Shown: positions 1 to 28,837, numbered from the stretch's first letter. The stretch is 64,000 bases of DNA from Microthrixaceae bacterium (GCA_020637195.1 JACJWK010000002.1:2299-66298), one strand, 5' to 3'. Numbers and translations are program-made. The notes: generated by a model not told the origin, from the sequence alone.

Positions 1-216
1 CTGGCCCCGGACGCGGCGGCGGACGTGATCGTGGTCGACGGCGACCCCGCCACCGACGTCTCGGTGCTCGGTGACAAGCGGCGCCTCCGCCACGTGTTCT
101 CCCGAGGGCGGGCGGTCGACCTCGACCGGCCGTGGCCCACCCGGGCGCCGCTGCCCGGGGAGAAGGTGGGCACGTGGTCGACCGAGCTGCTCACCTGGGA
201 CCTGGTGCACCCGTGA
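1..216 (+). CDS. amidohydrolase-family protein, C-terminal fragment (5' end outside window)
   Basis: Frame 1 is open from base 1 (LAPDAAADVIVVDGDPATDVSVLGDKRRLRHVFSRGRAV...). This is a typical C-terminal strand of metal-dependent amidohydrolases. Stop TGA 214-216 overlaps the next GTG. Confidence 0.5.
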   Translation: MAPDAAADVIVVDGDPATDVSVLGDKRRLRHVFSRGRAVDLDRPWPTRAPLPGEKVGTWSTELLTWDLVHP

Positions 217-1421
217 CCGGGGCCGGGCCCCGCGTGGTCACCGTCTCGACCTACGCCGAGGCACGCGACGCCTTCCGCCAGAAGCAGCTGCGCCAGGCCC
301 TCTACGACGACGGCGACGTCGTGATGGCCGACGTCCTGGTCAACCTGCACGGCGACGAGCACCGGGCCCGGCGCCGGCTCGAGAACCGGCTGTTCCGGCG
401 CGACACCCAGGTCCGCTACGAGCGGGAGCTGTTCCCGCCCATCGTCGAGGAGACACTCGCCCCCCACGTGGCCGCGGGCCGGGCCGAGCTGGTCAGCCTC
501 AGCCACCAGATGATGATGAACCTGTCGGCGTTCACCGCGGGGGTCGACCGGCCGCTCCGGACGGTCGAGGAGACCCACCGGCTCTACGAGTACCTCATGC
601 GCTTCATCGAGGGCGCCACCCTCGCCCACTACACCGGCGACCGGGAGGCCAAGCGGGCGCAGGTGGCCGCCGCGCTCGCGGCGTTCGACGAGGAGTTCCT
701 GCAGCCCTCGATCGCGCGGCGCCGCCGGGAGCTCGACCGGCTGGCCCGGGGCGAGATCGCCGAGGAGGAGCTGCCGCGCGACGTGCTCACCGTGCTGCTG
801 CGCAACCTGGACGACCTCTCGCTGCCCGACGAGGTGGTCCTGCGGGAGACGTGCTTCTACCTCCTCGCCGGGGCCCACACGTCCGCCACCGCCTTCGTGC
901 GGACCCTGCACCACCTGTTCGAGCTGGAGGCGGCGGACCCGGCCGGCGCCGCCTCGCGGCGCGACCTCGACGCCCTCCAGCGCTGCGTCCACGAGACCGT
1001 CCGGCTCCAGCCCTCCAGCCCGGTCGCGTTGCGGTGGGCGCTGGACGACCTCGAGCTCGCCGACGGTCGCCGGGTCACCCGGGGCGACCAGGTGGTCATC
1101 GACCTGATGGCGGCCAACCGCGACCCGGCCGCGTTCGGCGACGACGTCGAGGGCTTCGATCCCGACCGCGAGCTGCCCCCGGGGGTGGCGCGCTGGGGGC
1201 TCAGCTTCGGCCTGGGCATGCACGCCTGCATCGGCCAGGACCTCGCCGCCGGCGTCGAGCCGGGGCCCGACGGCCCGGGGGCCGACCACCTCTACGGGCT
1301 GGTGCCGGTCGCGGTGCGGGCCGCCCTCGACGCCGGCGCCCGACCCGACCCCGAGCACCCGGCGCGGCTCGACCCCGACTCGGCGCGGGGCTACTGGTCG
1401 GCTTACCCGGTGCTGCTGTAG
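213..1421 (+). CDS. cytochrome P450
   Basis: Heme-thiolate loop FGLGMHACIGQDLA (FxxGxHxCxG) and ExxR motif (ETVR). GTG 213 forms a GTGA overlap with the upstream stop. The ORF track start at 132 is probably too far upstream. Confidence 0.9.
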   Translation: MTGAGPRVVTVSTYAEARDAFRQKQLRQALYDDGDVVMADVLVNLHGDEHRARRRLENRLFRRDTQVRYERELFPPIVEETLAPHVAAGRAELVSLSHQMMMNLSAFTAGVDRPLRTVEETHRLYEYLMRFIEGATLAHYTGDREAKRAQVAAALAAFDEEFLQPSIARRRRELDRLARGEIAEEELPRDVLTVLLRNLDDLSLPDEVVLRETCFYLLAGAHTSATAFVRTLHHLFELEAADPAGAASRRDLDALQRCVHETVRLQPSSPVALRWALDDLELADGRRVTRGDQVVIDLMAANRDPAAFGDDVEGFDPDRELPPGVARWGLSFGLGMHACIGQDLAAGVEPGPDGPGADHLYGLVPVAVRAALDAGARPDPEHPARLDPDSARGYWSAYPVLL

Positions 1422-1439
1422 GGCCCGGCGCGAGCCCGG

Positions 1440-2382
1440 CTACGGCGCGAACGCGGCGTAGTACCCGTCGAGCAGGTGGGGCCGGCTGTCGCCCGGGTCG
1501 GGCATGAAGTCGACCGCCACGTAGTCGCCCGGCGGGAGGTCGAGGTGCACGTACCCCTCGAGTCCGGGCGAGATGGCGCCGAGGCCGCCGAGGGCCTCGA
1601 CCGGGACCGCCGGCGTGGCGTTGACCGCCAGGTCGTCCACGAGGGCGTCGACCTCGTCGGCCGAGGCCGACCGGCCGAGGCGCAGGATCGACAGCTCGTG
1701 GAGGCCCTCGCCGCCGTCGCCCTGGTCGGTGTTGCGCACGCGGTACCAGCCGGCCGGCATGGCGTCCGGGAGGCGGTAGCCGTCCTCGGCCAGCTCGATC
1801 GTGCCGGCGACCGGGTCCGGGTCCTGCTGCGCCGGGGGCGTGCCGCCGTCGCCCCCGCCGACGGTCAGCACCGACGACATGCCCCGCAGGGCGTGGGCCA
1901 CCCCGTCCGGGTCGGGCACGTAGCACATGGCCATGACCGTGCCCGCCGGCAGGTCGACCATCGCGTCGATGGTCTGGCCCGGGCCGATGTAGCTGACCCC
2001 GCCGATCATGTCGACGTACTCGATGGCCGCTGCGCCCGACGAGTCCTGGCCCGCGGCCGCGGCCAGCTCCGCGAGGTCGACGCCCTCCTTGGGTGCGGCG
2101 AACATCACCTGATGGGCCTCGGCGCCGTCGTTGCGGAACGAGACGGTGGTCCACCCGGGCTCGAGGTCGCCCGTGGGAGCCATCTCGAACGCGTACTCGG
2201 TGCCGCTGATGTCGAGGCGCTGCACCGCGGCGGGGACCGGGTCCGCCGGTTCGGCCGAGGTGGGCGGGGCCGCCTCGGCGGGGGCCGCCGCCGGTGTCCC
2301 CGGCCGAGCCGCAGGCGCCGGCGGCGAGCGCGCCGCCGGCCAGCAGGGCGGCCGCCGCCGCCAGGCGACGCGCCGCCCTCAC
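1440..2382 (-). CDS. exported lipoprotein with two tandem cupredoxin-like repeats; reading frame interrupted near 2280
   Basis: The mature part is ORF 1440-2225. Its two ~120-aa halves are internally similar (FRNDGAEAHQV...MCYVPDPDGVAHALRGM vs RNTDQG...GLHEL...DFMPDPGDSRPHLLDGY). A GTG at 2382 (GTGA overlap with the upstream stop) encodes a lipobox signal, VRAARRLAAAAALLAGGALAAGAC, but in another frame. The two frames meet around the G5 run at 2280-2284. Confidence 0.6.
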
Positions 2383-3245
2383 CAGTCCACCTCCGGCGTC
2401 GGCGGGAAGAGGGCGTCGCGCTCGGCCCGCAGCCGCTCGCAGTCCCACGAGCGGTCGACCGGGATCAACAGGATGGGGCTCTTGGCGGGGTCGGGGTACT
2501 GGGTCCACTGGCCGCCGGTCTCGAAGGCCGGGTCGGACGCGCCGATCACGAGCTGCTCGGAGTCGTCGTCGACCGTGCCGGTGAGTGACCCGTCGTCCTG
2601 CCGCTGCGCCTCGTAGGCGAAGATCTCCCGGCGGGCCAGGTAGATCTCGCCGCTGAGCTCGGGGGTCACGGTGATGGTGGCGGTGACCCCGGGGTTGCCG
2701 TCGCCGTCGTCGTCGGCGATGCGCGGGTCGTCCGGGTCGGTGGGCAGCGGGTCGTTCGCGGGGTCCTCCAGGCGGACGCCGATGCCGGTCGGCGTCGCCG
2801 GGCGGGAGACGTGGAGCACGCCGTCCTCCTCGGTCACCGTCACCGCCACCGGGACCGGGCGGATGGCCTGGGTGGCGGCGTCGGAGAACTCGACGCTGAT
2901 CGGCTGGTCGCTGCGGTGCTCGGAGAAGCAGAAGGAGTCGTCCGAGATGATCTCGCCGTCGACGAGGTCGTAGTCGGTGAAGCCGTACGAGATGATCAGG
3001 GTCTTCATGTCGTCCCCCTCGTAGGCGACGACGTCGTAGTGGGCGTAGCGGCCGGGCAGGTCCTCGGCGCCCGCGGGCAGGGCGGCGCCCGTCGTGGTGG
3101 TCGACGCGTCGCCGGTCGCCGACGAGTCGCCGGTCGCCGACGAGTCGCCGTCGTCGCTCCCGCACGCCGGGGCGACGAGGGCCAGCGCGAGCAGCGCCGC
3201 CGCGGTGGCCCGGCGGTGGCGGGGCGATCGTGCGGCGCCGCTCAT
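2379..3245 (-). CDS. exported lipoprotein, unknown function
   Basis: ATG 3245 (ATGA overlap with the stop of the upstream dioxygenase). Signal/lipobox MSGAARSPRHRRATAAALLALALVAPAC. Low-complexity linker (GDSSAT)x2, an acidic DDDGDGNPG stretch, and 2 Cys in the mature part. Confidence 0.7.
   Translation of the reverse strand: MSGAARSPRHRRATAAALLALALVAPACGSDDGDSSATGDSSATGDASTTTTGAALPAGAEDLPGRYAHYDVVAYEGDDMKTLIISYGFTDYDLVDGEIISDDSFCFSEHRSDQPISVEFSDAATQAIRPVPVAVTVTEEDGVLHVSRPATPTGIGVRLEDPANDPLPTDPDDPRIADDDGDGNPGVTATITVTPELSGEIYLARREIFAYEAQRQDDGSLTGTVDDDSEQLVIGASDPAFETGGQWTQYPDPAKSPILLIPVDRSWDCERLRAERDALFPPTPEVDW
3111..3146. repeat. 18-bp tandem duplication (GCCGGTCGCCGACGAGTC x2) inside the lipoprotein linker
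   Basis: Two perfect adjacent copies read directly from the sequence. They encode GDSSAT-GDSSAT on the minus strand. Confidence 0.9.
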
Positions 3246-4696
3246 GCCACGGCCTCCGGGAACCAGTTGGCGTGGAAGCCGAACGGCACGCGCCTCGGCA
3301 GGTGCACCCGAGCCACCGGTCCGGCGGCGAGGTCGCGGGCGTCGAGGACGACGAGGTCGGTGGCGTCGCGGTCGTCGTCGTACACGACGTTGAGCAGCCA
3401 GCCGTCGTCCTCGGCCGAGCCGCCCGGGTCGGCCGCGAAGACGCTCTCGCCGACGTGCCCGTGGGGGCCGGCGCTCCACACCGTCCGCTCGCCGGTGGCG
3501 TCGTCGTACTTGACGACGGCATCGAAGTCGCCGAGGTGCCGGTCGCGCCGGGTGAAGCCGGACAGGTACAGGTGGCGGACCGCCACGCCGTCGTAGGCGG
3601 GGTTGATGCGGTTGAAGTCGCCCTCCATGTCGTCCATGGGCTCCCAGCCGGCGGTGCCGGCGGCCAGGTCCACCCAGAAGCGGGCGGGCCGGGCGAAGTG
3701 GTCCTTGGCCGACCGGTCGCCGAGGGGCGTGGTGTTGTCGATGCCGAAGTCGGGGTCCTGGTAGCGACAGCCGTGGAACTCGATGCGGTCGCCGTCGGCC
3801 CAGCCCGACCAGAAGTGCTGCACGTGGCCGGGCTCGACGTCGAACCAGCGCAGCTCGTCGGCGGTGCCCCGCCGGGGCATCACGCCGATGCGGGCCCCCC
3901 GCTCGGGCATCCAGCGCACCATCGGCCCGTTGCCCAGGTTGGCGATGTCGAACACGAAGGGGGAGTCGAGGAAGACCGCGTGGTGCTCGGTCATCACCAT
4001 GTCGTGCATCATCACCGGTGCGGGCAGGTCGATGTCCACGCTGTGGGACAGGGTGCCGTCGGCGTCGACCACGTGGTAGCGCAGGTACGGCTCGAACAGC
4101 GAGTAGCCGAACATGAGCATCTCGCCGGTGCGGGGGTCGAGGCGGGGGTGCGCGGTCATGGCGCCCCGCAGGCGGCCGCCGAAGTCGTACTCGCCGACCG
4201 TGTCGAGCGAGGGGGTGACCTCGGTGGGGAGGCCACCCTCCCAGAGGGCGAGGCGGCGCCCGCCGTGCTCGATGACGTGGGTGTTGGCCGGGTTCTTGAC
4301 CGGCCCCGCGTCCCCGGTGAGGTCCCGGCTGGGGAAGTCCATCACCTCGCCGAGGCCCGGGTAGATCGCCGCCCCGTGGGCCAGCTCGGCGCCGAGGCCA
4401 CGCGACCGGATCCAGCGGTTGCGGTACGACACGCGCCCGTCGCCCCCGAAGGTGACGGCGTGGAGCATGCCGTCGCCGTCGAGCGCGCTGTAGCGGCCGA
4501 TGGGCTCGAAGGCGGGGTTGGGGCCGTTGCGGACGAAGCTCCCCCGCAGCCCCGCCGGCAGCTCGCCCGACACCGCGCAGTCGGGGGCGTCGAGCTCGTC
4601 GGCCACGGGGAAGCGGTTGCCCCGGAGGTCGGGTTGGTCGTCGGGGTTGGTGACGTGGCCGGTGACGGGCCCCGTGGCGGTGGTCGGGCTGGACAT
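3242..4696 (-). CDS. carotenoid/stilbene cleavage oxygenase family (RPE65/CCO/LSD-like) dioxygenase
   Basis: 484 aa starting at ATG 4696 (MSSPTTATG...). Four-His iron-ligand contexts are present: NTHVIEH, MTAHPRLD, MMHDMVMTE, FGFHANWF. The 926-aa ORF 3242-6022 is this gene plus an upstream wrong-frame extension. Confidence 0.9.
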   Translation of the reverse strand: MSSPTTATGPVTGHVTNPDDQPDLRGNRFPVADELDAPDCAVSGELPAGLRGSFVRNGPNPAFEPIGRYSALDGDGMLHAVTFGGDGRVSYRNRWIRSRGLGAELAHGAAIYPGLGEVMDFPSRDLTGDAGPVKNPANTHVIEHGGRRLALWEGGLPTEVTPSLDTVGEYDFGGRLRGAMTAHPRLDPRTGEMLMFGYSLFEPYLRYHVVDADGTLSHSVDIDLPAPVMMHDMVMTEHHAVFLDSPFVFDIANLGNGPMVRWMPERGARIGVMPRRGTADELRWFDVEPGHVQHFWSGWADGDRIEFHGCRYQDPDFGIDNTTPLGDRSAKDHFARPARFWVDLAAGTAGWEPMDDMEGDFNRINPAYDGVAVRHLYLSGFTRRDRHLGDFDAVVKYDDATGERTVWSAGPHGHVGESVFAADPGGSAEDDGWLLNVVYDDDRDATDLVVLDARDLAAGPVARVHLPRRVPFGFHANWFPEAVA

Positions 4697-4740
4697 GGTC
4701 GGGTGGGGCTCCCTCGGTGGGGCGACAGGGGTGGGCGGGG

Positions 4741-5952
4741 TCAGGCGCGCTCGACGTACCCGTCGAGCGCGGGGGAGACCCGGAGCTCGGCGGGGACCTC
4801 GTCGCCGATGGCGAGGTCGACGGCGCGGTGGAAGTGGTGGATCAGCCGCTCGTGCCAGCCGATCTGGAACGGCCGCGCCCCGCGGGACTCGACCGACCGC
4901 TGGATGCCGCCCATGTTGGCGGTGTCCTGGGCCATCACGGTCTCGAAGAGGGTCATGCGCAGCGTGTTCTCCTCGGGCGTGTCCCCGTCGCCCCAGTCGG
5001 GCGCGAACCACACCAGCTCCAGCTCGGTGGTGCGACGGTCGAGCGGCCACATGCACAGCAGGGGGAACGCCCCGGTGTCGAGCGGCGCCACGATGTTGGG
5101 GAACCACCCGAACGACGTGCTGGTCTCGCGCCAGAGCGCCCCGACCGACGGGTTGTCCGCCGCGGGCGACGGGTCCATCACGCCGAGGAGCTCGGGCTTG
5201 ACCGCGACCGAGAGCCGGCTGTGCCCGTTCGGGAGCATCGCCACGGTCGCGGTGGTGTCGTCGTAGAGCAGCGCGGCGTTGTCGGGGTGCACGGTGCGGA
5301 TGTGGTACACCTCGAGGAAGGCGTCGACCATGGCCTTCCAGTTGGCCGGGACCACGTGGCTCTGCGTGCCGATCTTGCGCAGCGAGGGCCCGTTCACCTC
5401 GAGCATCTGCTCGCACAGCGGGCCGAGGAACTCCACGAGGGGCGCGGCGTCGGGGTCCTCGTTGACGAACACCCAGCCCTCCCACACCTCGCAGCGGACC
5501 GGCACGAGGCCGAGCGCGTCGAGCTCGAGCCCCGCGAAGCTGCGGGCGTCGGGGACCGCCTTGAGGTGGCCGTCGAGCCCGTACGACCAGGAGTGGTACT
5601 GGCAGGTCAGGCGCTTGGCGGTGCCGCAGTCGTCGCGCACGACGGGCGCGCCACGGTGACGGCAGCTGTTGTAGAAGGCCCGGACCTCGCCGTCCTCGCC
5701 CGACACGACGACGATCGGTGCCCCCGACCGCTCGAAGGTGACGTACGCACCGGGCTCGGTCAGCTCGGACGTGTGGGCGGCGTACAGCCACGTCCGCCGC
5801 CACAGGTGCTCGCCCTCGAGGGCGAAGAGCCGCTCGTCGTGGTAGCGGCCGGCCGGGAGGGGCGGGACGGGGACGGCGTCGGGGGGCGGCGCGGTGCGGT
5901 CGCGGTTCTCGACCAGCTCCCGGCGGATCGTGGCTTCGAGGGTGGCGTCCAT
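4741..5952 (-). CDS. Rieske (2Fe-2S) aromatic ring-hydroxylating/demethylating oxygenase, alpha subunit
   Basis: Rieske motif CRHRG...CQYHSW and mononuclear-iron motif NWKAMVDAFLEVYHIRTVH. No beta subunit or reductase is adjacent. Confidence 0.9.
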   Translation of the reverse strand: MDATLEATIRRELVENRDRTAPPPDAVPVPPLPAGRYHDERLFALEGEHLWRRTWLYAAHTSELTEPGAYVTFERSGAPIVVVSGEDGEVRAFYNSCRHRGAPVVRDDCGTAKRLTCQYHSWSYGLDGHLKAVPDARSFAGLELDALGLVPVRCEVWEGWVFVNEDPDAAPLVEFLGPLCEQMLEVNGPSLRKIGTQSHVVPANWKAMVDAFLEVYHIRTVHPDNAALLYDDTTATVAMLPNGHSRLSVAVKPELLGVMDPSPAADNPSVGALWRETSTSFGWFPNIVAPLDTGAFPLLCMWPLDRRTTELELVWFAPDWGDGDTPEENTLRMTLFETVMAQDTANMGGIQRSVESRGARPFQIGWHERLIHHFHRAVDLAIGDEVPAELRVSPALDGYVERA

Positions 5953-6089
5953 GGGTCTCCCTGCGCTGGCGGCTCGGTGGCGCGAACCCCGGGTGGGCGG
6001 CAGCGGGTCCCGGGGCAGCCACGATCGTAGTAAACAGTGTTCACCCCTGCCGCCCGGGAGGCGGCGCCCGCCGGAGAGGAGCGACCGAC

Positions 6090-7802
6090 GTGCCGACGCC
6101 CGACTGCCTGACCACCGCCCCGCACCGGGACTTCGACCTGCGGGTCGTGTCCGGCGCGTGGCCCGCCGACGTGTCCGGCGAGATGCTGTTCTCGGCGCCC
6201 CGGCTGAGCGGCGGGCTGCCCTACGGGATCTTCGACTTCGGCGCGGTCGCGCGCCTGTCGCTGACCCCGGGCACCCACGGCGCCCCCGACGGCCGCTTCG
6301 CCTGGCGGGTCGCCAGCATCGAGACGCCCAGCAAGCGCATCTTCGACGCCGCGCCCGAGGCCTTCACCGCGGGCCCCGTCGGCTACACGTCGCCGTTCGG
6401 TGCCCCCAACGCGACGAACACCGCGCCGCTCCCGTGGGGCGACCGCCTGTTCACCACCTGGGACGCGGGCCGCCCGGTGGAGATCCACCCCGGCACGCTC
6501 GAGTACGTCGCCGAGGTCGGCCACATCGACAGCTGGGGCGGCCCGTCGATGTTCGGCGACACGGTGCTGCCGTTCCTGTTCTCCTCCGCGCACCCCGTCG
6601 CCGACCCCGACCGCGACGGGCTGTGGACCACCAAGCTGGAGCCGGTCATGGAGCCGACCTTCGGCATGCGGCCCTCGGTCGTGTGGTGGGACCGGGACGG
6701 CACCGAGGTGAAGTGGTGGCCGCTCGAGGGCATCGCCTTCGCCGGGTCCACCCACACGGTCAGCCAGACCCGCGACTGGGTCATCCTGTGCGACTCCGGC
6801 AACTTCCGGGCCGACCCCGACGAGATGTTCGGCGGCGAGCGCACCGTCACGGTCGACGACGCCGCTCCCGTGTGGCTCGTGCGCAAGGACGAGCTCCTCG
6901 CCCGCCCGTCGGGCACCCCGGTCACGCCGTCGTGCTTCACCGTCTCGCCCCCCAACGGCCACTTCTACGCCCGCTACGACGACACCGACGGCATCTCGGT
7001 CGTGTGGGAGGGCATGGACCTGATGGACCTGGCCCTGTACGTGCGCCCCGACGACGTCGACGTGCACGGCGCCCCGGTGCCGCCCGCGTCGGTGGGCCTC
7101 TACAACATGGCGATGGCCCCGGAGACCATCGCCGAGGTCGTCTTCGACCCCGAGTCGGGCAAGTTGCTCGACCAGGGCCGCTGCCGGGAGGACTGGACCT
7201 TCAACCTGCAGCTCTCGGCCATGGACTGGAGCACCGAGGGCATGAGCGCCCCGACCCTCCACCACGTCAGCTACCAGGGCTGCCGTCCCGGCCGGGTCAC
7301 TGCGCGGGCGGCCCGGCTGTACGAGGGCCGCATCGACCTCGACGACGTCGCCGAGGAGACGCCGGGCTACCTGGCGACCTTCGAGCGGGGGAGCATGGCG
7401 CTGAAGAGCCGCTGGGAGTACGCCGACACGTCCGACCTCATCACCTCGCCGACCTTCGCCCCGCGGAGCAACGGTGCCGACCCCTCCGCCAGCGCGTACG
7501 CCGGGGGCGAGCCCGGCGGGCACGACGGCTACGTGGTGCAGCCCGTCCTCAGCGACGACGGCTTCCGGGTGGAGCTCTTCGACGCCGCCCAGGTGGGCGC
7601 CGGCCCGATCGCAGTGCTCGAGGGCACCGCGAACGAGTGCGTGCCCCTGCTGTTGCACTCGGCCTGGATGCCGACCGTCGACGAGCTCGCCGACGCCGAC
7701 CGCCTGCGCTTCAGCGACGAGCTGACCGAGGCCCGCCTCGCCGGCCTCGACGACGACCAGCGCCGGGTGGTGGCGGCGGTGGCCGAGGAGCTCGATGGCT
7801 GA
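6090..7802 (+). CDS. divergent carotenoid-oxygenase-family (CCO/LSD-like) protein
   Basis: 570 aa. SD GGAGAGGAG lies 8 nt upstream of GTG 6090. His-containing contexts spaced as in CCOs: FSSAHPVAD, GSTHTVSQT, NGHFYAR, LLLHSAWM. Clearly more divergent than the 3242-4696 product. Confidence 0.75.
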   Translation: MPTPDCLTTAPHRDFDLRVVSGAWPADVSGEMLFSAPRLSGGLPYGIFDFGAVARLSLTPGTHGAPDGRFAWRVASIETPSKRIFDAAPEAFTAGPVGYTSPFGAPNATNTAPLPWGDRLFTTWDAGRPVEIHPGTLEYVAEVGHIDSWGGPSMFGDTVLPFLFSSAHPVADPDRDGLWTTKLEPVMEPTFGMRPSVVWWDRDGTEVKWWPLEGIAFAGSTHTVSQTRDWVILCDSGNFRADPDEMFGGERTVTVDDAAPVWLVRKDELLARPSGTPVTPSCFTVSPPNGHFYARYDDTDGISVVWEGMDLMDLALYVRPDDVDVHGAPVPPASVGLYNMAMAPETIAEVVFDPESGKLLDQGRCREDWTFNLQLSAMDWSTEGMSAPTLHHVSYQGCRPGRVTARAARLYEGRIDLDDVAEETPGYLATFERGSMALKSRWEYADTSDLITSPTFAPRSNGADPSASAYAGGEPGGHDGYVVQPVLSDDGFRVELFDAAQVGAGPIAVLEGTANECVPLLLHSAWMPTVDELADADRLRFSDELTEARLAGLDDDQRRVVAAVAEELDG

Positions 7803-8622
7803 CCACGCCGGTCCGGGCCGCACCGTGCTCGTCACGGGTGCGGGTCGGGGCCTGGGCGCGGCGATCGCCGCCGCCGCGGCGGGCGACGGGTGGACCGTCG
7901 CCGTGCTCGACCGGGACGGCGCCGCCGCCGCGGCCGTCGCCGCCTCCCTCGGGGCGCGGGCGGTCCCGCTGGCGTGCGACACCACCGACGCCCACGCGGT
8001 CGACCAGGCGCTCGACCGGTTGGCCGAGGCCACCGGGCGCGACGCCCCCGAGGGACTGGTGGCCAACGCCGGCGTCGTGCGCTTCGGCCCGCTGCTGGAC
8101 CTGGCGCTCGACGACTGGCGCGCCGTGGTGGACGTGAACCTCACCGGCACCTTCGTCACCGCCCGGGCGGTCGCCCGCCGGATGGTGGCGGCCGACGGGG
8201 CGGGGTCGATCGTCACCGTGACCTCCATGAACGGCGTCGCGCCGGGGCCCAACGCCGGCGCCTACGGCGCCACGAAGGCGGCAGTGGCCCTGCTCACGCA
8301 GCAGATGGCCCTCGAGTGGGGCGGGCGGGGCATCCGGGTGAACGCGGTGGCCCCCGGCCTGATCGACGCCGGGATGTCCGAGCCGATCTACGCCGATCCG
8401 GCGATCCGGCGGCGGCGCTCCGACGCCGTGCCCCTCGGCCGGCTGGGCACCGGGGCGGACGTGGCCGCCGCCGTCCTGTTCCTGTTGTCCGACGCCGCCG
8501 CGTACGTCACCGGCACCGAGCTGCTCGTGGACGGCGGGGTGACCCGGAGCGTGATCGCGGGCCTGCCCCGGCCCGCCGCGGTCGACTCCGTCGGGCCGGG
8601 TGGCGACGGGCCGCCGGGGTGA
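7795..8622 (+). CDS. short-chain dehydrogenase/reductase (SDR)
   Basis: TGAGRGLG cofactor motif and YGATK (YxxxK) catalytic motif. 8-nt overlap with the upstream gene. Confidence 0.9.
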   Translation: MADHAGPGRTVLVTGAGRGLGAAIAAAAAGDGWTVAVLDRDGAAAAAVAASLGARAVPLACDTTDAHAVDQALDRLAEATGRDAPEGLVANAGVVRFGPLLDLALDDWRAVVDVNLTGTFVTARAVARRMVAADGAGSIVTVTSMNGVAPGPNAGAYGATKAAVALLTQQMALEWGGRGIRVNAVAPGLIDAGMSEPIYADPAIRRRRSDAVPLGRLGTGADVAAAVLFLLSDAAAYVTGTELLVDGGVTRSVIAGLPRPAAVDSVGPGGDGPPG

Positions 8623-9335
8623 CCCGCCACCTGCTGCTCGGCGGCGGCCCGCTCCACGACTTCGCCGCCACGACCGCGGTGGTCGAGCGGGTGGCCGAGG
8701 AGCAGGGCCTGCGCACCACCACGGTGACGGAGCCCGACGAGGCCGTGGCCCTGCTCACCGACGCGGCCGCCGGCGGCGCCGAGCCGTTCGGCCTGCTCAC
8801 CGTCGACGCGCTGCGTTGGGCCATGGCGGCACCGGCCTACGCGGCCCAGCGGCACGAGCACGCCTACCGCATCACCGACGCCGCGGCGGCGGCGCTCGAC
8901 CGCCACGTGCGCGCCGGGGGCGGGCTGCTCGCCCTGCACACCGCGGTGATCTGCTTCGACGGCCATCCCCACTGGAAGGCCCTGTGCGGCGCCGCCTGGG
9001 CGTGGGGGACCAGCGCCCACCCGCCGCTCGGTCCCGCCCACGTCCGGCTGACCGCCGACGGCCGTCGCCACCCGGTCACCGCGGGCGTGGGCGACTTCAC
9101 CGTGGACGACGAGGTGTACGGCTTCCTCGACGAGGAGGACGGGCTCACCCCCCTGCTCACCAGCGCGCACGGCGGGCGCGACCACCCCGTGGTCTGGGCC
9201 CGCGAGGTGGGCGCCGGTCGGGTGGTGACCGACGTGCTCGGCCACGGGCCCGCCTCCCTCGAGCACCCCGCCCACCGGCGGCTGCTCGCGCAGGCCATGG
9301 CGTGGGCGCGGCGCGACCGCGCGGCGTCACCGTGA
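8619..9335 (+). CDS. ThuA-like (class-I glutamine-amidotransferase-like fold) protein
   Basis: GTG 8619 in a GTGA overlap with the SDR stop. LLALHTAVICFDGHPHWKALCGAAW...HPVTAGVGDFTVDDEVYGFL resembles the ThuA domain. Confidence 0.65.
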   Translation: MTRHLLLGGGPLHDFAATTAVVERVAEEQGLRTTTVTEPDEAVALLTDAAAGGAEPFGLLTVDALRWAMAAPAYAAQRHEHAYRITDAAAAALDRHVRAGGGLLALHTAVICFDGHPHWKALCGAAWAWGTSAHPPLGPAHVRLTADGRRHPVTAGVGDFTVDDEVYGFLDEEDGLTPLLTSAHGGRDHPVVWAREVGAGRVVTDVLGHGPASLEHPAHRRLLAQAMAWARRDRAASP

Positions 9336-10324
9336 TCGACCTGCACGCCCACGTGGTGCTCGAGTCCGTGCTCGGCGCGGCCGGGCCCCTCGGCCCCGAG
9401 CTCGACGACGGCGATCCTGCGACCGGGCGACCGCCCTGCTTCCGCGTCGGTGACTACACCCTGGTGGGGGTCCGCTACCGCGGCACCCCGTTCATGGACC
9501 TCGACGCCCGCCTGGCGGCGATGGACGCCGCCGGCATCGGGCTCCAGGTGCTCTCGCCCAACCCGCTCACGCTGTTCGCCCGCGCCGAGCCCGACTGGGC
9601 CGACGCGTTCTGTCGCCGCCACAACGACGAGCTGGCCGCCCTCGTGGCGCGGGCGCCCGACCGTCTCCGGGGGTTCGCCCAGGTGCCGATGCAGGACCCC
9701 GTCCGCGCCGTCGCCGAGCTGCGTCGAGCCGTGACCGAGCTGGGTCTCGTGGCGCCCTACCTCGCCACCGACCTCGGTCGGCCGCTCGACGACCCGGCCT
9801 TCGACCCCTTCTGGTCCTGCTGCGTCGACCTCGACGTCCCGGTGCTGTTCCACCCCGTGCCCGACGGGGTCGACGGCCCGCGGCGCGACGAGCGCCTTGC
9901 CCGCTTCGACGCGGACCTGTGGCTCGGCTTCCTCCACGAGGAGAGCCTGGCCGTCGCCACGCTCGTGCTCGGCGGGGTGCTCGACCGCTTCCCGACGCTG
10001 GACGTGTGCATGAGCCACGGCGGCGGCGCCACGTCGTGGCTGGCCGAGCGCATGGAGCACGCGGCCCGGACCCGGCCCTGGAGCCCGCCCGAGCTCGCCG
10101 CCGAGGGCGCGGTGCGCGACCGCCTGCGCCACCTGTGGTGGGACGCCCACGTGGGTGGGCCGCTGGCGCTCGCCGCGCTCGTGGCCGCGTTCGGTGCGGA
10201 CCGCATCGTCGCCGGCACGAACCTCGCGGGGTGGGACGAGGACACCGACCCGGCCCACGGGGACGCGGTGCGGGCGGCGACGCTCGACGCCAACGCCCGC
10301 CGCCTGCTGCGCCTCGACCGCTGA
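9332..10324 (+). CDS. amidohydrolase_2 family protein (ACMSD/LigW-type metal-dependent hydrolase/decarboxylase)
   Basis: GTG 9332 in a GTGA overlap. N-terminal IDLHAHVV (HxH), later FHPV, MSHGGG and GTNLAGWD, consistent with the TIM-barrel amidohydrolase_2 family. Confidence 0.8.
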   Translation: MIDLHAHVVLESVLGAAGPLGPELDDGDPATGRPPCFRVGDYTLVGVRYRGTPFMDLDARLAAMDAAGIGLQVLSPNPLTLFARAEPDWADAFCRRHNDELAALVARAPDRLRGFAQVPMQDPVRAVAELRRAVTELGLVAPYLATDLGRPLDDPAFDPFWSCCVDLDVPVLFHPVPDGVDGPRRDERLARFDADLWLGFLHEESLAVATLVLGGVLDRFPTLDVCMSHGGGATSWLAERMEHAARTRPWSPPELAAEGAVRDRLRHLWWDAHVGGPLALAALVAAFGADRIVAGTNLAGWDEDTDPAHGDAVRAATLDANARRLLRLDR

Positions 10325-10401
10325 TCCGCGGGTGGGCGCCCGGTCGCCCGCCCGAGGCGCTCGTCCCCTTCAGGCTCGGCGCGATCGAACGGCGGGGGGC
10401 G

Positions 10402-10920
10402 TCACGGCACGAAGTTCTCGAACAGCGGGACCGAGAGCCCGCACGCCTCGTCGGCGAAGTCGACGAGGGTCTGACCGGCGGCCGCCTGCTCGTCCTCGGT
10501 GGCGATGTCGTCCAGGCCGGCGAAGGCCTCCGGGTCGTCGAGGTCGTCCGGCCCGAGGTCGGCGATGAACTGCCCGACGTCGGCGATCGTCGCGAACGAA
10601 TCGGCGACGTCGCCCGAGGTGTCGTCGGCCAGGCCGCGGACCAGGTCGACGTCGCCCTGGGTGGGTTGGACCGACGGGTCGATCTCGGCGACGGCGGCGA
10701 GGTCGCCGCACAACGTGTCGCTGCGGTCCTCGTCCGCGGCGACCGTGGTGGCCGGCACGTCGTCCGTGGCCGACGTCTCGTCCGGGAGCTCCGCGTCGAT
10801 GCTGTCGGCGGTGGGGTCACCTTCGTCCACCCCCACGTCACCGCCGCCGTCGTCGCCGCAGGCGGCGATCAGCAGGAGGAGGGACACGACGAGACTCAGC
10901 GGGGTGAGGGTGCGGCGCAC
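10402..10920 (-). CDS. very acidic exported lipoprotein, unknown function
   Basis: GTG 10920. Signal and lipobox MRRTLTPLSLVVSLLLLIAAC. The mature part is about 30% Asp/Glu and has 2 further Cys. Confidence 0.7.
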   Translation of the reverse strand: MRRTLTPLSLVVSLLLLIAACGDDGGGDVGVDEGDPTADSIDAELPDETSATDDVPATTVAADEDRSDTLCGDLAAVAEIDPSVQPTQGDVDLVRGLADDTSGDVADSFATIADVGQFIADLGPDDLDDPEAFAGLDDIATEDEQAAAGQTLVDFADEACGLSVPLFENFVP

Positions 10921-11176
10921 GGTGGTTCCCTTCGTTCGCTCGCTGCGGTCGAACCTACCTCACCGCCCCGACCGAGGGGACTGCCGCAATCGTCTCCGCA
11001 GGCCGGCGGGAGTACCCTCGCCGGTGCTCCCGCCGCTGGGGATGGCGTGCGGCACAGGTGGCGTCGGAGCGGAATCGCGAAAGTTCGGCGGGTGAGCGAC
11101 CGTTGCCCACACGGGACCGTCAACACGAGTGAGTGAGCGTGCGCCGGGCGCACGAGAGGGAACGAGGCTGATCCGA

Positions 11177-13813
11177 ATGCGCCGGTCGACCACCACTTCC
11201 GGGATCGCCGTGGCCCTCGCCGCGCTCCTGGCCATGCCCGCGGCGCTCGCCCAGACCGGGCCGGGGGCCGACCCGGCCACGGAGCCCGCGCCCGCCGCGC
11301 ACGGGATGCAGGCCGTCGAGCAACTCGGTCCCCGGCTGGACGACGTCGCCCGCGACTACGGCATCAGCGAGAAGCGGCTCGAGTCGCTGCTGCTCACCGA
11401 CCCGACGCTGGCGGTCGATCCCGATGGCGAGCTGTTGTACGTCGACGAGCCCGCCCCGGGCGAGGGGGCCGGTCCCGCGCCCGAGGTGGACCCGGGCCCC
11501 GAGCCGGCGCCGCCGACCGACGACGCGGTGTTCGAGCTCCACAGCCTCCCCGGCGCGAGCCACGTGATCTACCTCGACTTCGACGGCAGCACCACCACGG
11601 GCACGAGCTGGAACTCGTCGAGCGGCATCGACCCGATCGTGTCGCCGCCCTACGACCTCGACGGGTCACCGGACTCGTGGTCGGCCACCGAGCTGTCCCG
11701 CATCGGCCTCGTGTGGGCGTACGTCGCCGAGGACTTCGCGCCGTTCGCGGTCGACGTCACCACGGAGGAGCCGCCGGTGGCCGACCTCCGGCGCAGCGGC
11801 GCCGGCGACGCGCGGTGGGGGGTGCGGGTCGTCGTCACCGACGACACCTGGGCGGACTGCGGCTGCGGCGGCCACGCCTACATCGGCTCGTTCGACGACG
11901 CCACCGACGAGCCCGTCTTCGTGTACAACAGCTCGCTCAGCGGGGTCAGCGAGGCCTCGTCCCACGAGGTGGGCCACTCGATGAACCTGGCCCACGACGG
12001 CAAGGGCACGTCGACCTACTACGGGGGCCACGGCTCCGGGACGACGAGCTGGGGCCCCATCATGGGCGCCGCCTACAACCGCTCGGTCACCCAGTGGAGC
12101 CGGGGCGAGTACCTCGACGCGACGAACAACGGCTCGTCGGCCAACTACGGCAACGGCCCCGACGACCTCGCCGTCATCGCCAGCCTCACCAACGGCAACG
12201 GGTTCGGCCTGCGCCCGGACGACCACGGCGACACGACGGCGACGGCGACGCCCTTGAGCGGGCTCACCCCGGTCGCCACCGGCCGCATTGGCACCACCGC
12301 GGACGTCGACGTGTTCCGCTTCACGACGGGGGCCGGGCCGGTCACGGTCCAGGTCGACCCGTTCCTGCCGGTGAAGAACCTGGACGTCCGCGCGCAACTG
12401 CTCGACCAGGGCGGCGGGGTGGTGGCCGTGTCCGACGGCGCCGCCACCCTGTCGGCCGGCTTCACCCAGACGCTGCCCGCCGGGACCTACTACGTGACGG
12501 TGGAGGGCACCGGCGTGGGCGATCCGTTCGCCGCGTCGCCGACGGGCTACACGTCGTACGCCTCGCTCGGCCAGTACGCGCTGTCGGCCACCACGCTGCC
12601 GGTCCCGGCGGGGTCGATCTCGGGGACCGTCACCGACGACGGTTCGGGTGACCCGGTTGCGGGCGCGTGGGTGCTCGCGCTGGACACCGCCACCGGTGCA
12701 CCGGTGGCGGCGACGGCGGACGCGTCCGGCGCGTTCTCGGCGGTGGTGGGCCCCGGCACCCACCACGTGCTCACCCTCGACCCCTCCGGCACGCACGCCG
12801 GCGAGTGGTACGACGACCGGGCCCTCGACGGCGACCCGACGCCGGTGGACGCCGGCGCCTCCGGTCTCGACATCGGCCTGGCGCCCGCCGGCGCCACCGC
12901 GTCGGTGTCGGGGGTGGTCACCGACGCGGCGACGGGCCAGCCCCTGCCCGGCGTGTGGGTGGCCGCCGTGGGTCCCTTCCCGGACTCGGCGGCGCTCGCC
13001 GGCGGCACGCAGACCGATGCGTCCGGCCGATACACCATCAGCGGACTCGAGGCGGGCGACCACCTCCTCGCCTTCATCGACCCCGCTCGGGACCACGCCG
13101 TCGAGTTCCACGACGACGCCGCGGTCCCGAGCGGGGCGACGCTCGTCCCGCTCTCGCCGGGCACGACGGCGACCGCGGACGCGGCGTTGGCGCCGGTGGC
13201 GGCCGGCGCCCCGGGCACGGCACCGCTGACCGGCCGGGTCACCGCGACGGGAACGGGTGCGCCCATCGAGGGGGCCTGGGTGGTCGCCCTCGACAGCACC
13301 GGCACCGTCGCCGACGCCACGGTGACCGACGCAGCCGGCGACTACGCGCTGGCCGTCGTGCCGGGGGGCTACTTCGTCGAGTTCGTCGATCCGACCGCCA
13401 CCCACCGCGGCGAGTGGAACCTCGACCACCCCACCCAGGACCTGGGGGCCGCGGACCAGGTGGTCGTCGGGCCCACCGGCGCCGTCGTCGACGCCGACCT
13501 CGACCCGGCCGGGCCCACCGCGGCGCTGAGCGGCACCGTGACCGGGGTGGGCGGCCTCCCGGTGCCCGGCGCGTGGGTGGTCGTGCTCGACCCGGCCACC
13601 GGCGGCCTGGTGAAGGGCGCGGTCACCGGGCTCGACGGCAGCTACACCGTCGGCGGGTTGCGGACCGGCCCGGTCGTCGTCGCCTTCCTCGACCCCTCCG
13701 GGGTGCACGCGCTCGAGTACCACGACGGCGCGGCCGGCTTCGGTCAGGCCGACCCCGTCGCGCTCGTGGCCGGATCCACCACGGCCGTGTCGGCCACGCT
13801 CGACCCACCCTGA
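11177..13813 (+). CDS. secreted zinc metalloprotease (metzincin-like) with PPC domain and four CarboxypepD_reg-like repeats
   Basis: Signal peptide MRRSTTTSGIAVALAALLAMPAALAQ. Zinc motif HEVGHSMNLAHD. Pre-peptidase C-terminal-like segment (DDHGDTTATATPL...DVDVFRF...YYVTVEG). Four ~100-aa repeats begin near 12610, 12899, 13226 and 13526 (e.g. SGTVTDDGSGDPVAGAWVLALD). Confidence 0.85.
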   Translation: MRRSTTTSGIAVALAALLAMPAALAQTGPGADPATEPAPAAHGMQAVEQLGPRLDDVARDYGISEKRLESLLLTDPTLAVDPDGELLYVDEPAPGEGAGPAPEVDPGPEPAPPTDDAVFELHSLPGASHVIYLDFDGSTTTGTSWNSSSGIDPIVSPPYDLDGSPDSWSATELSRIGLVWAYVAEDFAPFAVDVTTEEPPVADLRRSGAGDARWGVRVVVTDDTWADCGCGGHAYIGSFDDATDEPVFVYNSSLSGVSEASSHEVGHSMNLAHDGKGTSTYYGGHGSGTTSWGPIMGAAYNRSVTQWSRGEYLDATNNGSSANYGNGPDDLAVIASLTNGNGFGLRPDDHGDTTATATPLSGLTPVATGRIGTTADVDVFRFTTGAGPVTVQVDPFLPVKNLDVRAQLLDQGGGVVAVSDGAATLSAGFTQTLPAGTYYVTVEGTGVGDPFAASPTGYTSYASLGQYALSATTLPVPAGSISGTVTDDGSGDPVAGAWVLALDTATGAPVAATADASGAFSAVVGPGTHHVLTLDPSGTHAGEWYDDRALDGDPTPVDAGASGLDIGLAPAGATASVSGVVTDAATGQPLPGVWVAAVGPFPDSAALAGGTQTDASGRYTISGLEAGDHLLAFIDPARDHAVEFHDDAAVPSGATLVPLSPGTTATADAALAPVAAGAPGTAPLTGRVTATGTGAPIEGAWVVALDSTGTVADATVTDAAGDYALAVVPGGYFVEFVDPTATHRGEWNLDHPTQDLGAADQVVVGPTGAVVDADLDPAGPTAALSGTVTGVGGLPVPGAWVVVLDPATGGLVKGAVTGLDGSYTVGGLRTGPVVVAFLDPSGVHALEYHDGAAGFGQADPVALVAGSTTAVSATLDPP

Positions 13814-14376
13814 CCGGGGTCGGCGTGGGCCGGCCGGCCCTCGTCGAGCACGGCGGCGAAGCGCCGGCGCAGCAGCGCCCGGTTGTAGCGCTGGAGCATC
13901 ACGGGGTAGCCGTTCAGCGCCACGTCGAAGATCAGCGTCAGCAGCGCCGCGGTCCACCAGCCGCGCGCCGCGGCGTGGAGGACGACGCCGAGCGTGGCGA
14001 CGAGCAGGAGGGCATGGGCCGCCTCGGCGTCGCGCATCCGCCCCTCGAGGTGGGCGAGCGACGCGGGCGACGGCTCGGCGGGCAGGTGCAGGTCCGGGTT
14101 GAAGCGGGCGAGGGGGCCGCGGCGCAGCAGGCGCTTGACGATGCGCACCCCGAGCCGCTCGTACACCCGGCCGTCGCGCTCGCCGGCGCGGAGCTCGTGG
14201 TAGCGGGCGGGGAGGCGGGGCCGGACGACCCGGCTGATCGTGCCCAGCCAGGTCATGGGGACCCACACCACCAGGAACGCGAACCCGGCGCCGTCGGCGC
14301 CGAGCACGCGGGCGCCGCCCACGAGCACCGCCGCGGCGACGCCCGTCGCGACCGGCACCAGCACTGCCTTGCGCAC
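13744..14376 (-). CDS. integral membrane protein, possibly glycosyl-4,4'-diaponeurosporenoate acyltransferase (CrtO)-like
   Basis: About 4 hydrophobic segments. The C-terminal motif LNGYPVMLQRYNRALL resembles, from memory, the xYPxxxQRYNR signature of that family. The 3' 70 nt overlap the convergent protease gene. Confidence 0.5.
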   Translation of the reverse strand: MRKAVLVPVATGVAAAVLVGGARVLGADGAGFAFLVVWVPMTWLGTISRVVRPRLPARYHELRAGERDGRVYERLGVRIVKRLLRRGPLARFNPDLHLPAEPSPASLAHLEGRMRDAEAAHALLLVATLGVVLHAAARGWWTAALLTLIFDVALNGYPVMLQRYNRALLRRRFAAVLDEGRPAHADPGQGGSSVADTAVVDPATSATGSA

Positions 14377-14498
14377 GGTGCCATCATCGCTGCGCCGAGG
14401 GCGCGCCGACAGGGGCCGAGGGCCCGAACCGTCGGTCGGGGCTCGCGGCCGCCGTGCCAGGATGGCGGGCGGAGACGGCCGGACCGGGAGGTGGCGCC

Positions 14499-14963
14499 GT
14501 GGGCATCGAGGTGGCGCCGATCGGGCACGTGCGGGGCGGGCGGGCCGCGGTCGAGGACGACGGGTGGGACGCCGAGACGTGTCGCATCGAGTTCGACGGC
14601 GGGCTGCTCGAGCCCGAGGCCACCCTCGGCCTCGACGGGTTCTCCCACGTCGAGGTCGTCTTCGTGTTCGACCGTGTCGACCCCACCAGCGTGTGCACCG
14701 GTGCCCGTCACCCCCGGGGGCGCCGGGACTGGCCCCGGGTCGGCATCCTGGCCCAGCGGGCCAAGGACCGGCCCAACCGGATCGGGGTGACGATCTGTCG
14801 CCTGGTCGGCGCCGGGCCCGGCTGGATCGACGTGCGCGGCCTCGACGCCGTCGACGGCACGCCCGTGCTCGACGTGAAGCCGCACCTGACGGGCTTCGCC
14901 CCCCGCGGCGAGGTCCGCGAGCCGGGCTGGGCGGTCGAGCTCATGGCCGGGTACTGGGACTGA
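14499..14963 (+). CDS. trmO: TsaA/YaeB-family tRNA (m6t6A37) methyltransferase TrmO-like
   Basis: GTG 14499, 7 nt after GGGAGG. IGHVRG..., RPNRIGVTICRL and DGTPVLDVKPH are characteristic of the family. Confidence 0.8.
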   Translation: MGIEVAPIGHVRGGRAAVEDDGWDAETCRIEFDGGLLEPEATLGLDGFSHVEVVFVFDRVDPTSVCTGARHPRGRRDWPRVGILAQRAKDRPNRIGVTICRLVGAGPGWIDVRGLDAVDGTPVLDVKPHLTGFAPRGEVREPGWAVELMAGYWD

Positions 14964-14977
14964 CGGGGGCTCCGCCC

Positions 14978-15952: not shown

Positions 15953-15996
15953 CCGCCCCGTCGAGACCGCGCGTCCGGCGCTCCTAGGCTCGCCCC

Positions 15997-16908: not shown

Positions 16909-16963
16909 CCGGCGGTCGGTACGCTGCCGGGGGCGGCGCGACGAGGGGGAGTCGGACCAGGCC

Positions 16964-23805: not shown

Positions 23806-23806
23806 G

Positions 23807-24586: not shown

Positions 24587-24597
24587 GTCGGCCGCCC

Positions 24598-25158: not shown

Positions 25159-25161
25159 GAC

Positions 25162-25193
25162 TGACACTCTGTCCAATATTGGACAGAGTGTCA
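25162..25193. promoter_or_regulatory. 32-bp perfect palindrome, putative TetR operator embedded in divergent promoters
   Basis: TGACACTCTGTCCAAT|ATTGGACAGAGTGTCA read directly from the sequence. It lies in the 55-bp gap between ATG 25158 (-) and GTG 25214 (+). Confidence 0.7.
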
Positions 25194-25213
25194 ACAAGCG
25201 GTAGGATGCGGGG

Positions 25214-25864: not shown

Positions 25865-25944
25865 GCGCTCGCGGCCCCGTCGCCGTCACCTTCGCGGTCG
25901 TCGTGGGTAGGAACCGGGTTCCGCCACCGAGAGGAGACAGATCG

Positions 25945-26112: not shown

Positions 26113-26120
26113 CCCCCGTC

Positions 26121-26151
26121 GGCGGGACCGGCCGACCGGGCCGGTCCCGCC
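26121..26151. terminator. perfect 13-bp-stem hairpin between convergent genes (bidirectional terminator candidate)
   Basis: GGCGGGACCGGCC-gaccg-GGCCGGTCCCGCC, 9 nt after the csbD stop and 18 nt before the stop of the convergent SDR. Confidence 0.55.
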
Positions 26152-26168
26152 CCCGAGGGCGGCCGCCG

Positions 26169-28802: not shown

Positions 28803-28837
28803 CCGCGGACGGTAGCCCGCGGCGCGGCCGGCGTCGC

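Follow-up and report, generated by a model that had tools for sequence, protein, structure and literature searches.

An operator-linked oxygenase gene set of the Acidimicrobiia with two carotenoid cleavage oxygenase-family proteins and a putative catabolic role

Enzymes of the carotenoid cleavage oxygenase (CCO) family are known for the cleavage of carotenoids, retinoids, stilbenoids and lignin fragments. This work concerns a gene cluster encoding two proteins of this family, CCO1 and CCO2, at one end of a 64,000-nucleotide stretch of DNA from a Microthrixaceae bacterium (GCA_020637195.1, JACJWK010000002.1:2299-66298), the whole of which is called the window below. In the sphingomonads Sphingobium sp. 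SYK-6 and Novosphingobium aromaticivorans, the lignin-dimer genes have locus tags spread across the genome (PMC12997858). A literature search found no published description of the cluster studied here. Judged from sequence comparison, the window holds one copy of a conserved and apparently co-regulated Acidimicrobiia gene set of about ten families.

Conservation and operator linkage of the gene set

A scan of representative genomes returned 80 CCO2-related loci, 48 of them with full 10-kb flanks. All were labelled Acidimicrobiia, among them the cultured Actinospongicola halichondriae Hal317, except one metagenome-assembled genome (MAG) labelled Bifidobacteriaceae. Tblastn searches of the 80 loci with the window proteins found the Rieske oxygenase in 54, a short-chain dehydrogenase/reductase (SDR) in 51, CCO1 in 49, a cytochrome P450 in 39, a ThuA-like protein in 39, an Amidohydro_2 protein in 37 and the lipoprotein lipo2 in 36. 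An earlier note on this DNA, which had delineated the cluster, had suggested conserved synteny as a check, and the neighbourhood is indeed kept in relatives: CCO2 was accompanied by at least one partner family in 42 of the 48 full-flank loci and by at least four in 33. Within these 48 loci we counted Rieske 37 times, CCO1 35, SDR 34, ThuA and P450 33 each, a further amidohydrolase (Amidohydro_1, AH1) 31 and Amidohydro_2 30; lipo2 was present in 26, lipo2 or the protein family unk16 in 32, and the second lipoprotein, lipo1, in only 9. Gene order and orientation vary widely from locus to locus, suggesting that the linkage is maintained and not simply inherited.

The nearest relatives (L005, L006 and L012) have AH1 and P450 pointing rightward, then lipo1, lipo2, CCO1 and Rieske leftward, then CCO2, SDR, ThuA and Amidohydro_2 rightward. 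Because this order includes the P450 in all three, we count it as a conserved member of the cluster; its coordinates, 213-1421, had been correctly given, as those of a neighbour abutting the cluster. When all genes of the loci were clustered de novo and assigned by Pfam and NCBIfam, AH1 (40 loci), a TetR regulator (29 loci), a Dabb protein and a second SDR (SDR2) joined the recurrent families. The clustering also recovered a Liv-type ATP-binding cassette (ABC) importer (binding protein, permease and two ATPases) in 13-14 loci, two acyl-coenzyme A (CoA) ligase families and unk16, a 250-residue protein with no known domain. The previous account of the system thus listed genes that belong to it, but lacked the TetR regulator, importer, acyl-CoA ligases and Dabb protein of the relatives. 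No scaffold-building enzymes of the polyketide synthase, non-ribosomal peptide synthetase, terpene or crt type were found among the recurrent neighbour families.

The window has a guanine-plus-cytosine (GC) content of about 75%, which makes raw lists of open reading frames noisy, and genes were called from frame plots of third-position GC (GC3) followed by Pfam. The plots gave a clean gene series in agreement with the coordinates proposed earlier, and with the Pfam/HMM check they bore out all of the earlier gene calls and family assignments. The features are as follows.

1-216, plus strand: 3' end of the ~430-residue AH1 gene (Amidohydro_1), cut by the left edge of the window; tblastn of the conserved family
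213-1421, plus strand: cytochrome P450 (PF00067, 5.5e-17)
1440-2382, minus strand: lipo1, lipoprotein with an apparent frameshift; lipobox signal, no Pfam or NCBIfam match
2379-3245, minus strand: lipo2, conserved lipoprotein; lipobox LVAPAC, no Pfam match
3242-4696, minus strand: CCO1, canonical CCO-family enzyme (PF03055, 8.7e-130)
4741-5952, minus strand: alpha subunit of a Rieske non-heme iron oxygenase, alpha-only type (PF00355, 3.6e-20; PF00848, 8.6e-23)
5953-6089, no strand: divergent control region of 137 bp between Rieske and CCO2, read in the sequence
6030-6044, no strand: operator-like palindrome GTAAACAGTGTTCAC (family consensus GTGAACAnTGTTCAC), from motif comparison across related loci
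6090-7802, plus strand: CCO2, deep-branching protein of the CCO superfamily (PF03055, 6e-17)
7795-8622, plus strand: SDR (PF13561, 5.5e-60)
8619-9335, plus strand: ThuA-like protein (PF06283, 8.5e-30)
9332-10324, plus strand: Amidohydro_2 protein of the ACMSD / gamma-resorcylate decarboxylase / LigW superfamily (PF04909, 1.1e-32), start GTG at 9332

The overlaps of 8, 4 and 4 nt claimed for CCO2/SDR, SDR/ThuA and ThuA/Amidohydro_2 were read directly in the sequence (ATGGCTGA, GTGA and GTGA), the GTG start of Amidohydro_2 overlapping the ThuA stop. Overlaps of 4 nt also join CCO1 to lipo2 and the AH1 stop to the P450 start (GTGA). Tblastn with the AH1 family matched window positions 1-210 to AH1 residues 359-428, its last 70, at 81% identity. 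Since this match lies at the very start of the window and the AH1 stop overlaps the P450 start, the cluster is cut by the window's left edge. All genes named earlier are present, but AH1 at 1-216 had been missed and the cluster extends further than had been thought.

In the divergent control region, the AT-rich string GTAGTAAACAGTGTTCAC (6027-6044) contains the core GTAAACAGTGTTCAC, which occurs once in the window, against 0.01 matches expected. The same motif was found in the intergenic regions upstream of CCO2 in related loci, regardless of the gene on the other side, and its consensus is a perfect 7-1-7 palindrome of 15 bp, GTGAACAnTGTTCAC. Allowing up to two mismatches, this consensus had 83 sites in 1.44 Mb of loci compared with 0-1 in block shuffles, and 82 of the 83 were intergenic. 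When sites were assigned to genes starting within 300 bp downstream, they lay upstream of CCO2 (41), Rieske (25), CCO1 (9), unk16 (9), TetR (8) and AH1 (6), and also of Dabb, AMP-ligase and SDR2; the median distance to the CCO2 start was 56 bp. The dyad that the earlier note had pointed out in this region is thus present as a conserved operator-like palindrome, which supports the idea of a regulatory site.

Because a common palindrome precedes their first genes, the separable modules would constitute one regulon, and because it links the modules to the TetR gene as well, the co-travelling TetR protein (PF00440 plus TetR_C_33) is the obvious candidate for an autoregulated repressor. It had been remarked that no regulator gene adjoins the cluster; a regulator of the cluster type is in fact absent from the whole 64-kb window, and relatives carry the TetR gene. 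Two TetR genes in the window, at 25.2 kb and 35.6 kb, were considered as the cognate regulator and rejected, being of other TetR types with no operator nearby. An Rfam scan of 1-11200 at E<=0.1 gave no match, indicating that the control region is not a known RNA, and a scan of 5900-6150 for sigma-70 promoters and terminators found none, such a scan being uninformative in an actinobacterium of 75% GC. The two divergent starts are preceded by the Shine-Dalgarno-like sequences GGAGAGGAG and GGGAG.

These data bear on the explanation that unrelated oxygenase genes have come together by chance in a gene-dense catabolic region. Other, unrelated catabolic genes do occur in the window at 22-31 kb. However, much as gene order has been rearranged, the same families are found together in 33-42 of 48 independent loci and have an operator in common whose abundance shuffling does not reproduce; the explanation is already contradicted, and we give it almost no credence.

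The two CCO-family proteins

CCO2 scored 62.3 bits against PF03055 (cutoff 27), its residues 17-528 aligning with model positions 14-469, and carries a C-terminal extension of about 45 residues. The four iron-binding histidines, on which its membership of the family had been expected to turn, were assessed in a MAFFT alignment of 64 sequences (21 CCO2 orthologs, 27 distant clade members and 16 CCO1 orthologs). H168, H222, H291 and H523 of CCO2 fall in the columns of H183, H231, H294 and H475 of CCO1, and all four columns hold His in 64 of 64 sequences. Profile-profile alignment (hhalign) independently paired the first two ligands of the two proteins, and phmmer paired LLLHSAW, with the fourth His of CCO2, with the LHGSW motif of the apocarotenoid oxygenase ACO. 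An AlphaFold model of CCO2 (predicted template modelling score, pTM, 0.77; mean predicted local distance difference test, pLDDT, 69; loops unreliable) was compared with the PDB using Foldseek. All 50 matches listed were CCO-family proteins (E 8.6e-18 to 8e-13, TM 0.5-0.65, 11-16% identity), including ACO, lignostilbene dioxygenases (LSDs), NOV1, CCD1, VP14, CAO1, NinaB and RPE65, and the modelled fold is the seven-bladed beta-propeller of the family.

An occluding Thr and three second-sphere Glu/Asp residues hydrogen-bonded to the His ligands have been described in CCOs (PMC12051055). In CCO2 the former corresponds to the invariant T111. Of the carboxylates, the alignment indicates that one is kept as Asp (D125, 48 of 48 clade members); the position of CCO1 E417 (GESVF) is Ser in CCO2 (S453, TSPTF) and that of CCO1 D356 is variable, the alignment being weak there. 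The four histidines and the modelled fold indicate that CCO2 is a true CCO in structure and that its metal site is intact; O2-dependent cleavage of a conjugated C=C bond would be its predicted reaction.

CCO2 orthologs are 67-86% identical across the class, making this the most conserved protein of the set, and a database entry from an Acidimicrobiales MAG, annotated as a carotenoid oxygenase family protein, is identical to the window protein. The clade is small: among 1.84 billion representatives searched exhaustively, HMMER found 526 clusters (50% identity) with E-values below 1e-3 and 82 with E-values below 1e-30. CCO2 did not match the lignostilbene dioxygenase models NF053778 and NF053780 of NCBIfam. 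Some loci (L041 at ~13199 and L042 at ~19722, both minus strand) have a second paralog of the clade, with 42% identity, beside the TetR gene, and orphan paralogs with ~50% identity (L070-L083) have no cluster genes around them. The distant members P0175 and P0128 lie in unrelated genomic contexts, which argues that the association with the cluster is specific to the Acidimicrobiia clade. Searched by tblastn against 72,556 plasmids, CCO2 gave one marginal cyanobacterial match and no catabolic-plasmid lead. Distant clade members of 600-650 residues (P0175, P0178, P0186, P0191, P0204, P0206 and others), in contexts unrelated to the cluster, bear twin-arginine translocation (Tat) or lipoprotein signals, which suggests that CCO-like enzymes are exported there.

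We tentatively entertain the possibility that the CCO2 clade is a functionally new branch of the family, with the four His kept, the second sphere remodelled (Asp or Ser for Glu), a C-terminal extension, a CntA-like Rieske partner and a substrate that is neither carotenoid nor stilbenoid. The regulon would then be a new catabolic pathway widespread in the Acidimicrobiia, with lipo2 and unk16 as accessory proteins.

CCO1 is closer to described enzymes. Its best PDB matches were plant CCD1 (2.8e-68), ACO (4e-56) and VP14, followed by NOV1 (4e-51) and LsdA (7e-43). Against NF052295, the family of the 8'-apo-carotenoid 13,14-cleaving dioxygenase, it scored 282 bits where the equivalog cutoff is 675; against the lignostilbene alpha,beta-dioxygenase models NF053778 and NF053780 it scored 232 (cutoff 800) and 210 (cutoff 650), again below both cutoffs. 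Its substrate-tunnel segment aligned without gaps to ACO (2.7e-6), with which it has the IYxG and LKNxANT motifs in common, and only marginally to NOV1 and LSD (0.4-0.8). The ligands His183, His231, His294 and His475 are invariant. We take these similarities to lean modestly towards a polyene or apocarotenoid substrate over one of the stilbene type.

This leaning would suit a pathway for the turnover of carotenoids or apocarotenoids, external or self-made, in which CCO1 and CCO2 would cut successive double bonds of a polyene, the P450 and SDR would oxidise ionone-type or hydroxylated end groups, and the CoA ligases would take up apocarotenoic acids. Among curated families CCO1 is indeed nearest to the mycobacterial-type apocarotenoid dioxygenase, and among structures to CCD1 and ACO. 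The lipoproteins, with lipo2 modelled as a beta-barrel, could handle hydrophobic ligands, and the cluster is separated by 3.4 kb from a gene for a carotenoid acyltransferase of the CrtO family. Against this, all scores are far under the equivalog cutoffs, and a pathway for lipophilic carotenoids would be an unusual place for a Liv-type ABC importer or a peptidase-like amidohydrolase. Moreover, the match of lipo2 to lipid-binding barrels is not significant, the CrtO gene is outside the conserved set, and a CntA-like Rieske oxygenase has no known role in carotenoid metabolism. We regard carotenoid turnover as a possible reading, though an unlikely one.

Partner enzymes, lipoproteins and surroundings

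The Rieske oxygenase, whose two Pfam domains both score over their cutoffs, is closest to the alpha-only group of CntA, GbcA and stachydrine demethylase and is neither ring-hydroxylating nor VanA/LigXa-like. CntA is its nearest solved structure (7.8e-34) and GbcA its nearest NCBIfam model (NF058607, 7e-39), the match being confined to residues 32-235 and scoring 133 bits, under the cutoff of 670. Its ligands C97/H99, C117/H120, E214, H217 and H222 are invariant in 41 aligned family members, the window protein included, and occur in the motifs C97-R-H99, C117-Q-Y-H120 and, for H217 and H222, DAFLEVYHxRTVH. The Glu of LEVYH precedes the first His ligand of the iron by three residues; CntA likewise has Glu at this bridging position.

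The motifs of the P450 (heme motif FGLGMHACIG, I-helix AGAHTS and an ETVR motif), of the SDR (TGxxxGxG and YxxxK) and of Amidohydro_2 (HxH) are intact in the translations. The ThuA gene is almost always directly 3' of the SDR gene in related loci, and a sequence search of the PDB with the ThuA-like protein found no solved relative. Amidohydro_2 scored 114 bits against PF04909 (cutoff 26), with DLHAHV as its N-terminal HxH metal motif, and matched ACMSD (2.4e-28), gamma-resorcylate decarboxylase (7e-23) and LigW2 (8e-19) in the PDB; it had no match in NCBIfam, so that it is placed at superfamily level only. The AH1 family (PF01979, 3.1e-29) has its nearest solved relatives among hydrolases of amides and peptides, namely the Cc2672 carboxypeptidase, N-acyl-Pro prolidases, ochratoxin amidohydrolases and the hydrolases of phenylurea and molinate. 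Compared with the PDB by sequence, the Liv-type binding protein of relatives gave no match and no hint of a ligand.

Several of these families recall the breakdown of lignin-derived stilbenoids or other aromatic dimers, a reading in which the CCOs would be lignostilbene dioxygenases, the Rieske oxygenase, the P450 or both would be O-demethylases, and Amidohydro_2 would be a LigW-like decarboxylase. The same families (LSD, LigW/LigW2, the Rieske demethylase LigXa, SDRs and CoA ligases) occur in Sphingobium SYK-6 and Novosphingobium (PMC12997858), Amidohydro_2 matches the gamma-resorcylate, salicylate and LigW decarboxylases, and Liv-type binding proteins and CoA ligases would suit the uptake and activation of aromatic acids. 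However, CCO1 scores higher against carotenoid and apocarotenoid cleavers than against LSDs, in its bit scores and E-values as in its tunnel segment, and the Rieske oxygenase is of the CntA/GbcA kind. Moreover, neither a ring-cleavage dioxygenase nor a vanillin or other aldehyde dehydrogenase is among the conserved families. On balance, the lignin-dimer reading seems doubtful to us.

Two lipoproteins had been called on the minus strand, and lipobox signals were found in both. In lipo1, however, the signal, which starts with a GTG at 2382 that overlaps the lipo2 stop, does not share the frame of the mature domain (1440-~2300), whereas the orthologs in L005, L014, L019, L023 and L047 have it in frame. 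The break at window positions 2290-2382 looks like a 1-nt frameshift in a run of G/C, which would reflect either an assembly error or a pseudogene. Homologs of lipo2 number more than 1000, all named hypothetical, and include one in the cultured Rhabdothermincola salaria. AlphaFold gave a confident beta-barrel for lipo2 (pLDDT 86) that had no significant match in the PDB (best E 0.03), and it may represent a new or very divergent barrel family. Fatty-acid-binding protein (FABP), AttH and lipocalin barrels were considered and set aside, their fold matches being non-significant (E>=0.03), and no function was read into them. Beside Rieske and CCO2, lipo2 and unk16 fill the same slot and nearly exclude each other: 31 loci had only lipo2, 9 only unk16 and 2 both, the loci compared with lipo2-bearing ones being L023, L041, L042, L044, L048-L050, L067-L069 and L080. 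The two proteins have no sequence similarity to each other.

A contig from a sister MAG (L086, GCA_020439545.1), which encodes an identical CCO2 protein, is 98.1% identical to window positions 2377-17802. The homology ends exactly at the lipo2/lipo1 junction (window 2377, L086 3691), where HD-domain, luciferase-like and major facilitator superfamily (MFS) genes replace lipo1, P450 and AH1; this break is either a strain-level rearrangement or the product of a chimeric assembly.

To the right of the cluster, 10402-10920 (minus strand) encodes a small acidic lipoprotein with no known domain. It adjoins the gene at 11177-13813 (plus strand) for an 878-residue secreted protein with four CarboxypepD_reg repeats and a metalloprotease-like motif, HEVGHSMNLAHDG. 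The CrtO-family gene 3.4 kb from the cluster lies at 13744-14364 (minus strand) and matches PF18927, glycosyl-4,4'-diaponeurosporenoate acyltransferase, at 4.5e-19. A second, unrelated catabolic island occupies 22111-31473, with genes for an FAD-dependent aromatic-ring hydroxylase, a glyoxalase/extradiol-type protein, a TetR regulator, two SDRs, an Amidohydro_3 protein, a thiolase-like protein and a ChsH2-like hydratase.

A catabolic model and its comparison with known systems

The presence of an importer and CoA ligases in relatives, the translationally coupled operons and the lack of scaffold-building enzymes among recurrent neighbours make a catabolic function, which we infer from sequence, the best fit. 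The earlier note had proposed a catabolic route for stilbenoid, lignin-dimer-type or apocarotenoid substrates; the first part of this proposal agrees with our data, whereas the substrate class is not established, given that CCO1 is nearer to apocarotenoid cleavers than to LSDs, that the equivalog cutoffs were missed and that the Rieske oxygenase is of the CntA/GbcA type.

The model that we consider somewhat better than an even bet is a TetR-repressed catabolic pathway for an imported acid or amide bearing an alkene. The cluster TetR protein would bind at 6030-6044 and shut off both divergent operons, Rieske-CCO1-lipoprotein and CCO2-SDR-ThuA-Amidohydro_2. It would also shut off the AH1-P450 operon through an operator to the left of the window, and be released by the pathway substrate or an intermediate. 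The organic acid or amide would be imported by the Liv-type ABC system in relatives and with the help of surface lipoproteins here. AH1 would hydrolyse an amide bond, the Rieske and P450 monooxygenases would hydroxylate or demethylate the compound, and CCO1 and CCO2, as 4-His iron dioxygenases, would each act on a conjugated C=C bond, cleaving it to carbonyl products. The SDR would then interconvert alcohol and carbonyl groups, Amidohydro_2 would decarboxylate or hydrate an intermediate, and the acyl-CoA ligases of relatives would pass acids into CoA metabolism. Within this model, an apocarotenoid or other polyene and a compound of some other class receive equal shares of our expectation, each a little over a third, and a phenylpropanoid or stilbenoid, possibly amide-conjugated given AH1, a slightly smaller one.

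The two oxygenases, P450 and SDR could also be seen as a biosynthetic cluster for an apocarotenoid-derived or other oxidised small molecule, in the manner of plant hormone routes. The strigolactone route of plants uses CCD7, CCD8 and a P450, and the abscisic acid route uses NCED and an SDR, and the paired CCOs, P450 and SDR of the cluster echo these. Nonetheless, no scaffold-forming enzymes are among the conserved neighbours, and an importer, CoA ligases and a TetR-operator layout are typical of catabolism, making a biosynthetic role improbable.

Several observations weigh against the catabolic model. Cleavage by CCOs yields aldehydes, and both Rieske oxygenases and P450s require electron donors, yet no aldehyde dehydrogenase, ferredoxin or reductase was found among the conserved families. 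The window itself has neither the cluster TetR gene nor the ABC importer, and we infer binding of TetR to the operator only from co-occurrence and the shape of the palindrome. No protein of the cluster reaches a curated NCBIfam equivalog cutoff, and CCO2, apparently without two of the three second-sphere carboxylates, may have a chemistry other than alkene cleavage. Finally, the model assigns no role to ThuA, lipo1, lipo2, unk16 or Dabb.

As far as its genes can be read, the cluster represents a known type, the oxidative catabolic cluster under the control of a repressor. What sets it apart is the deep-branching CCO clade, a pair of accessory proteins without family or fold assignment and a class-wide regulon signature. 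A CCO clade so conserved across its class, and tied by an operator to a Rieske oxygenase, P450, SDR, ThuA and two amidohydrolases, would mark an undescribed pathway. The defined operator, candidate repressor and binding protein, together with the cultured carrier A. halichondriae Hal317, offer experimental handles, and identification of the substrate would widen the reaction and substrate space of CCOs and clarify the diet of largely uncultured actinobacteria.

Several described systems resemble parts of the cluster. The sphingomonad lignin-dimer system likewise employs CCO-family alkene dioxygenases, the Amidohydro_2 decarboxylases LigW/LigW2, the Rieske O-demethylase LigXa, SDRs and CoA ligases (PMC12997858), but the likeness stops at the level of families, since no equivalog cutoff was reached. 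Unlike it, the present cluster is an apparent operator-linked regulon with a CCO1 nearer to apocarotenoid cleavers and a CntA/GbcA-like Rieske oxygenase, and its ThuA, AH1, P450, lipo2 and CCO2 clade have no counterparts in the sphingomonad pathways. Synechocystis ACO and the NF052295 family, the best structural and curated matches of CCO1, share with it the fold, the 4-His site, the second-sphere carboxylates and both tunnel motifs; CCO1 nevertheless falls far short of the NF052295 cutoff, and CCO2 has little identity with any solved CCO. CntA, GbcA and stachydrine demethylase are alpha-only like the cluster Rieske oxygenase and are its best structural and NCBIfam matches, whereas the context of the latter implies no quaternary-amine substrate and includes no reductase partner. 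With the ThuAB trehalose 3-dehydrogenase system the cluster has the Pfam ThuA domain in common, but its recurrent neighbours include no ThuB-type GFO/IDH/MocA protein, and its ThuA is coupled to an SDR. Although the TetR gene is absent from the window, the cluster is like TetR-repressed catabolic operons in having a 15-bp inverted repeat, the candidate operator, between its divergent operons and, in relatives, before the TetR gene.

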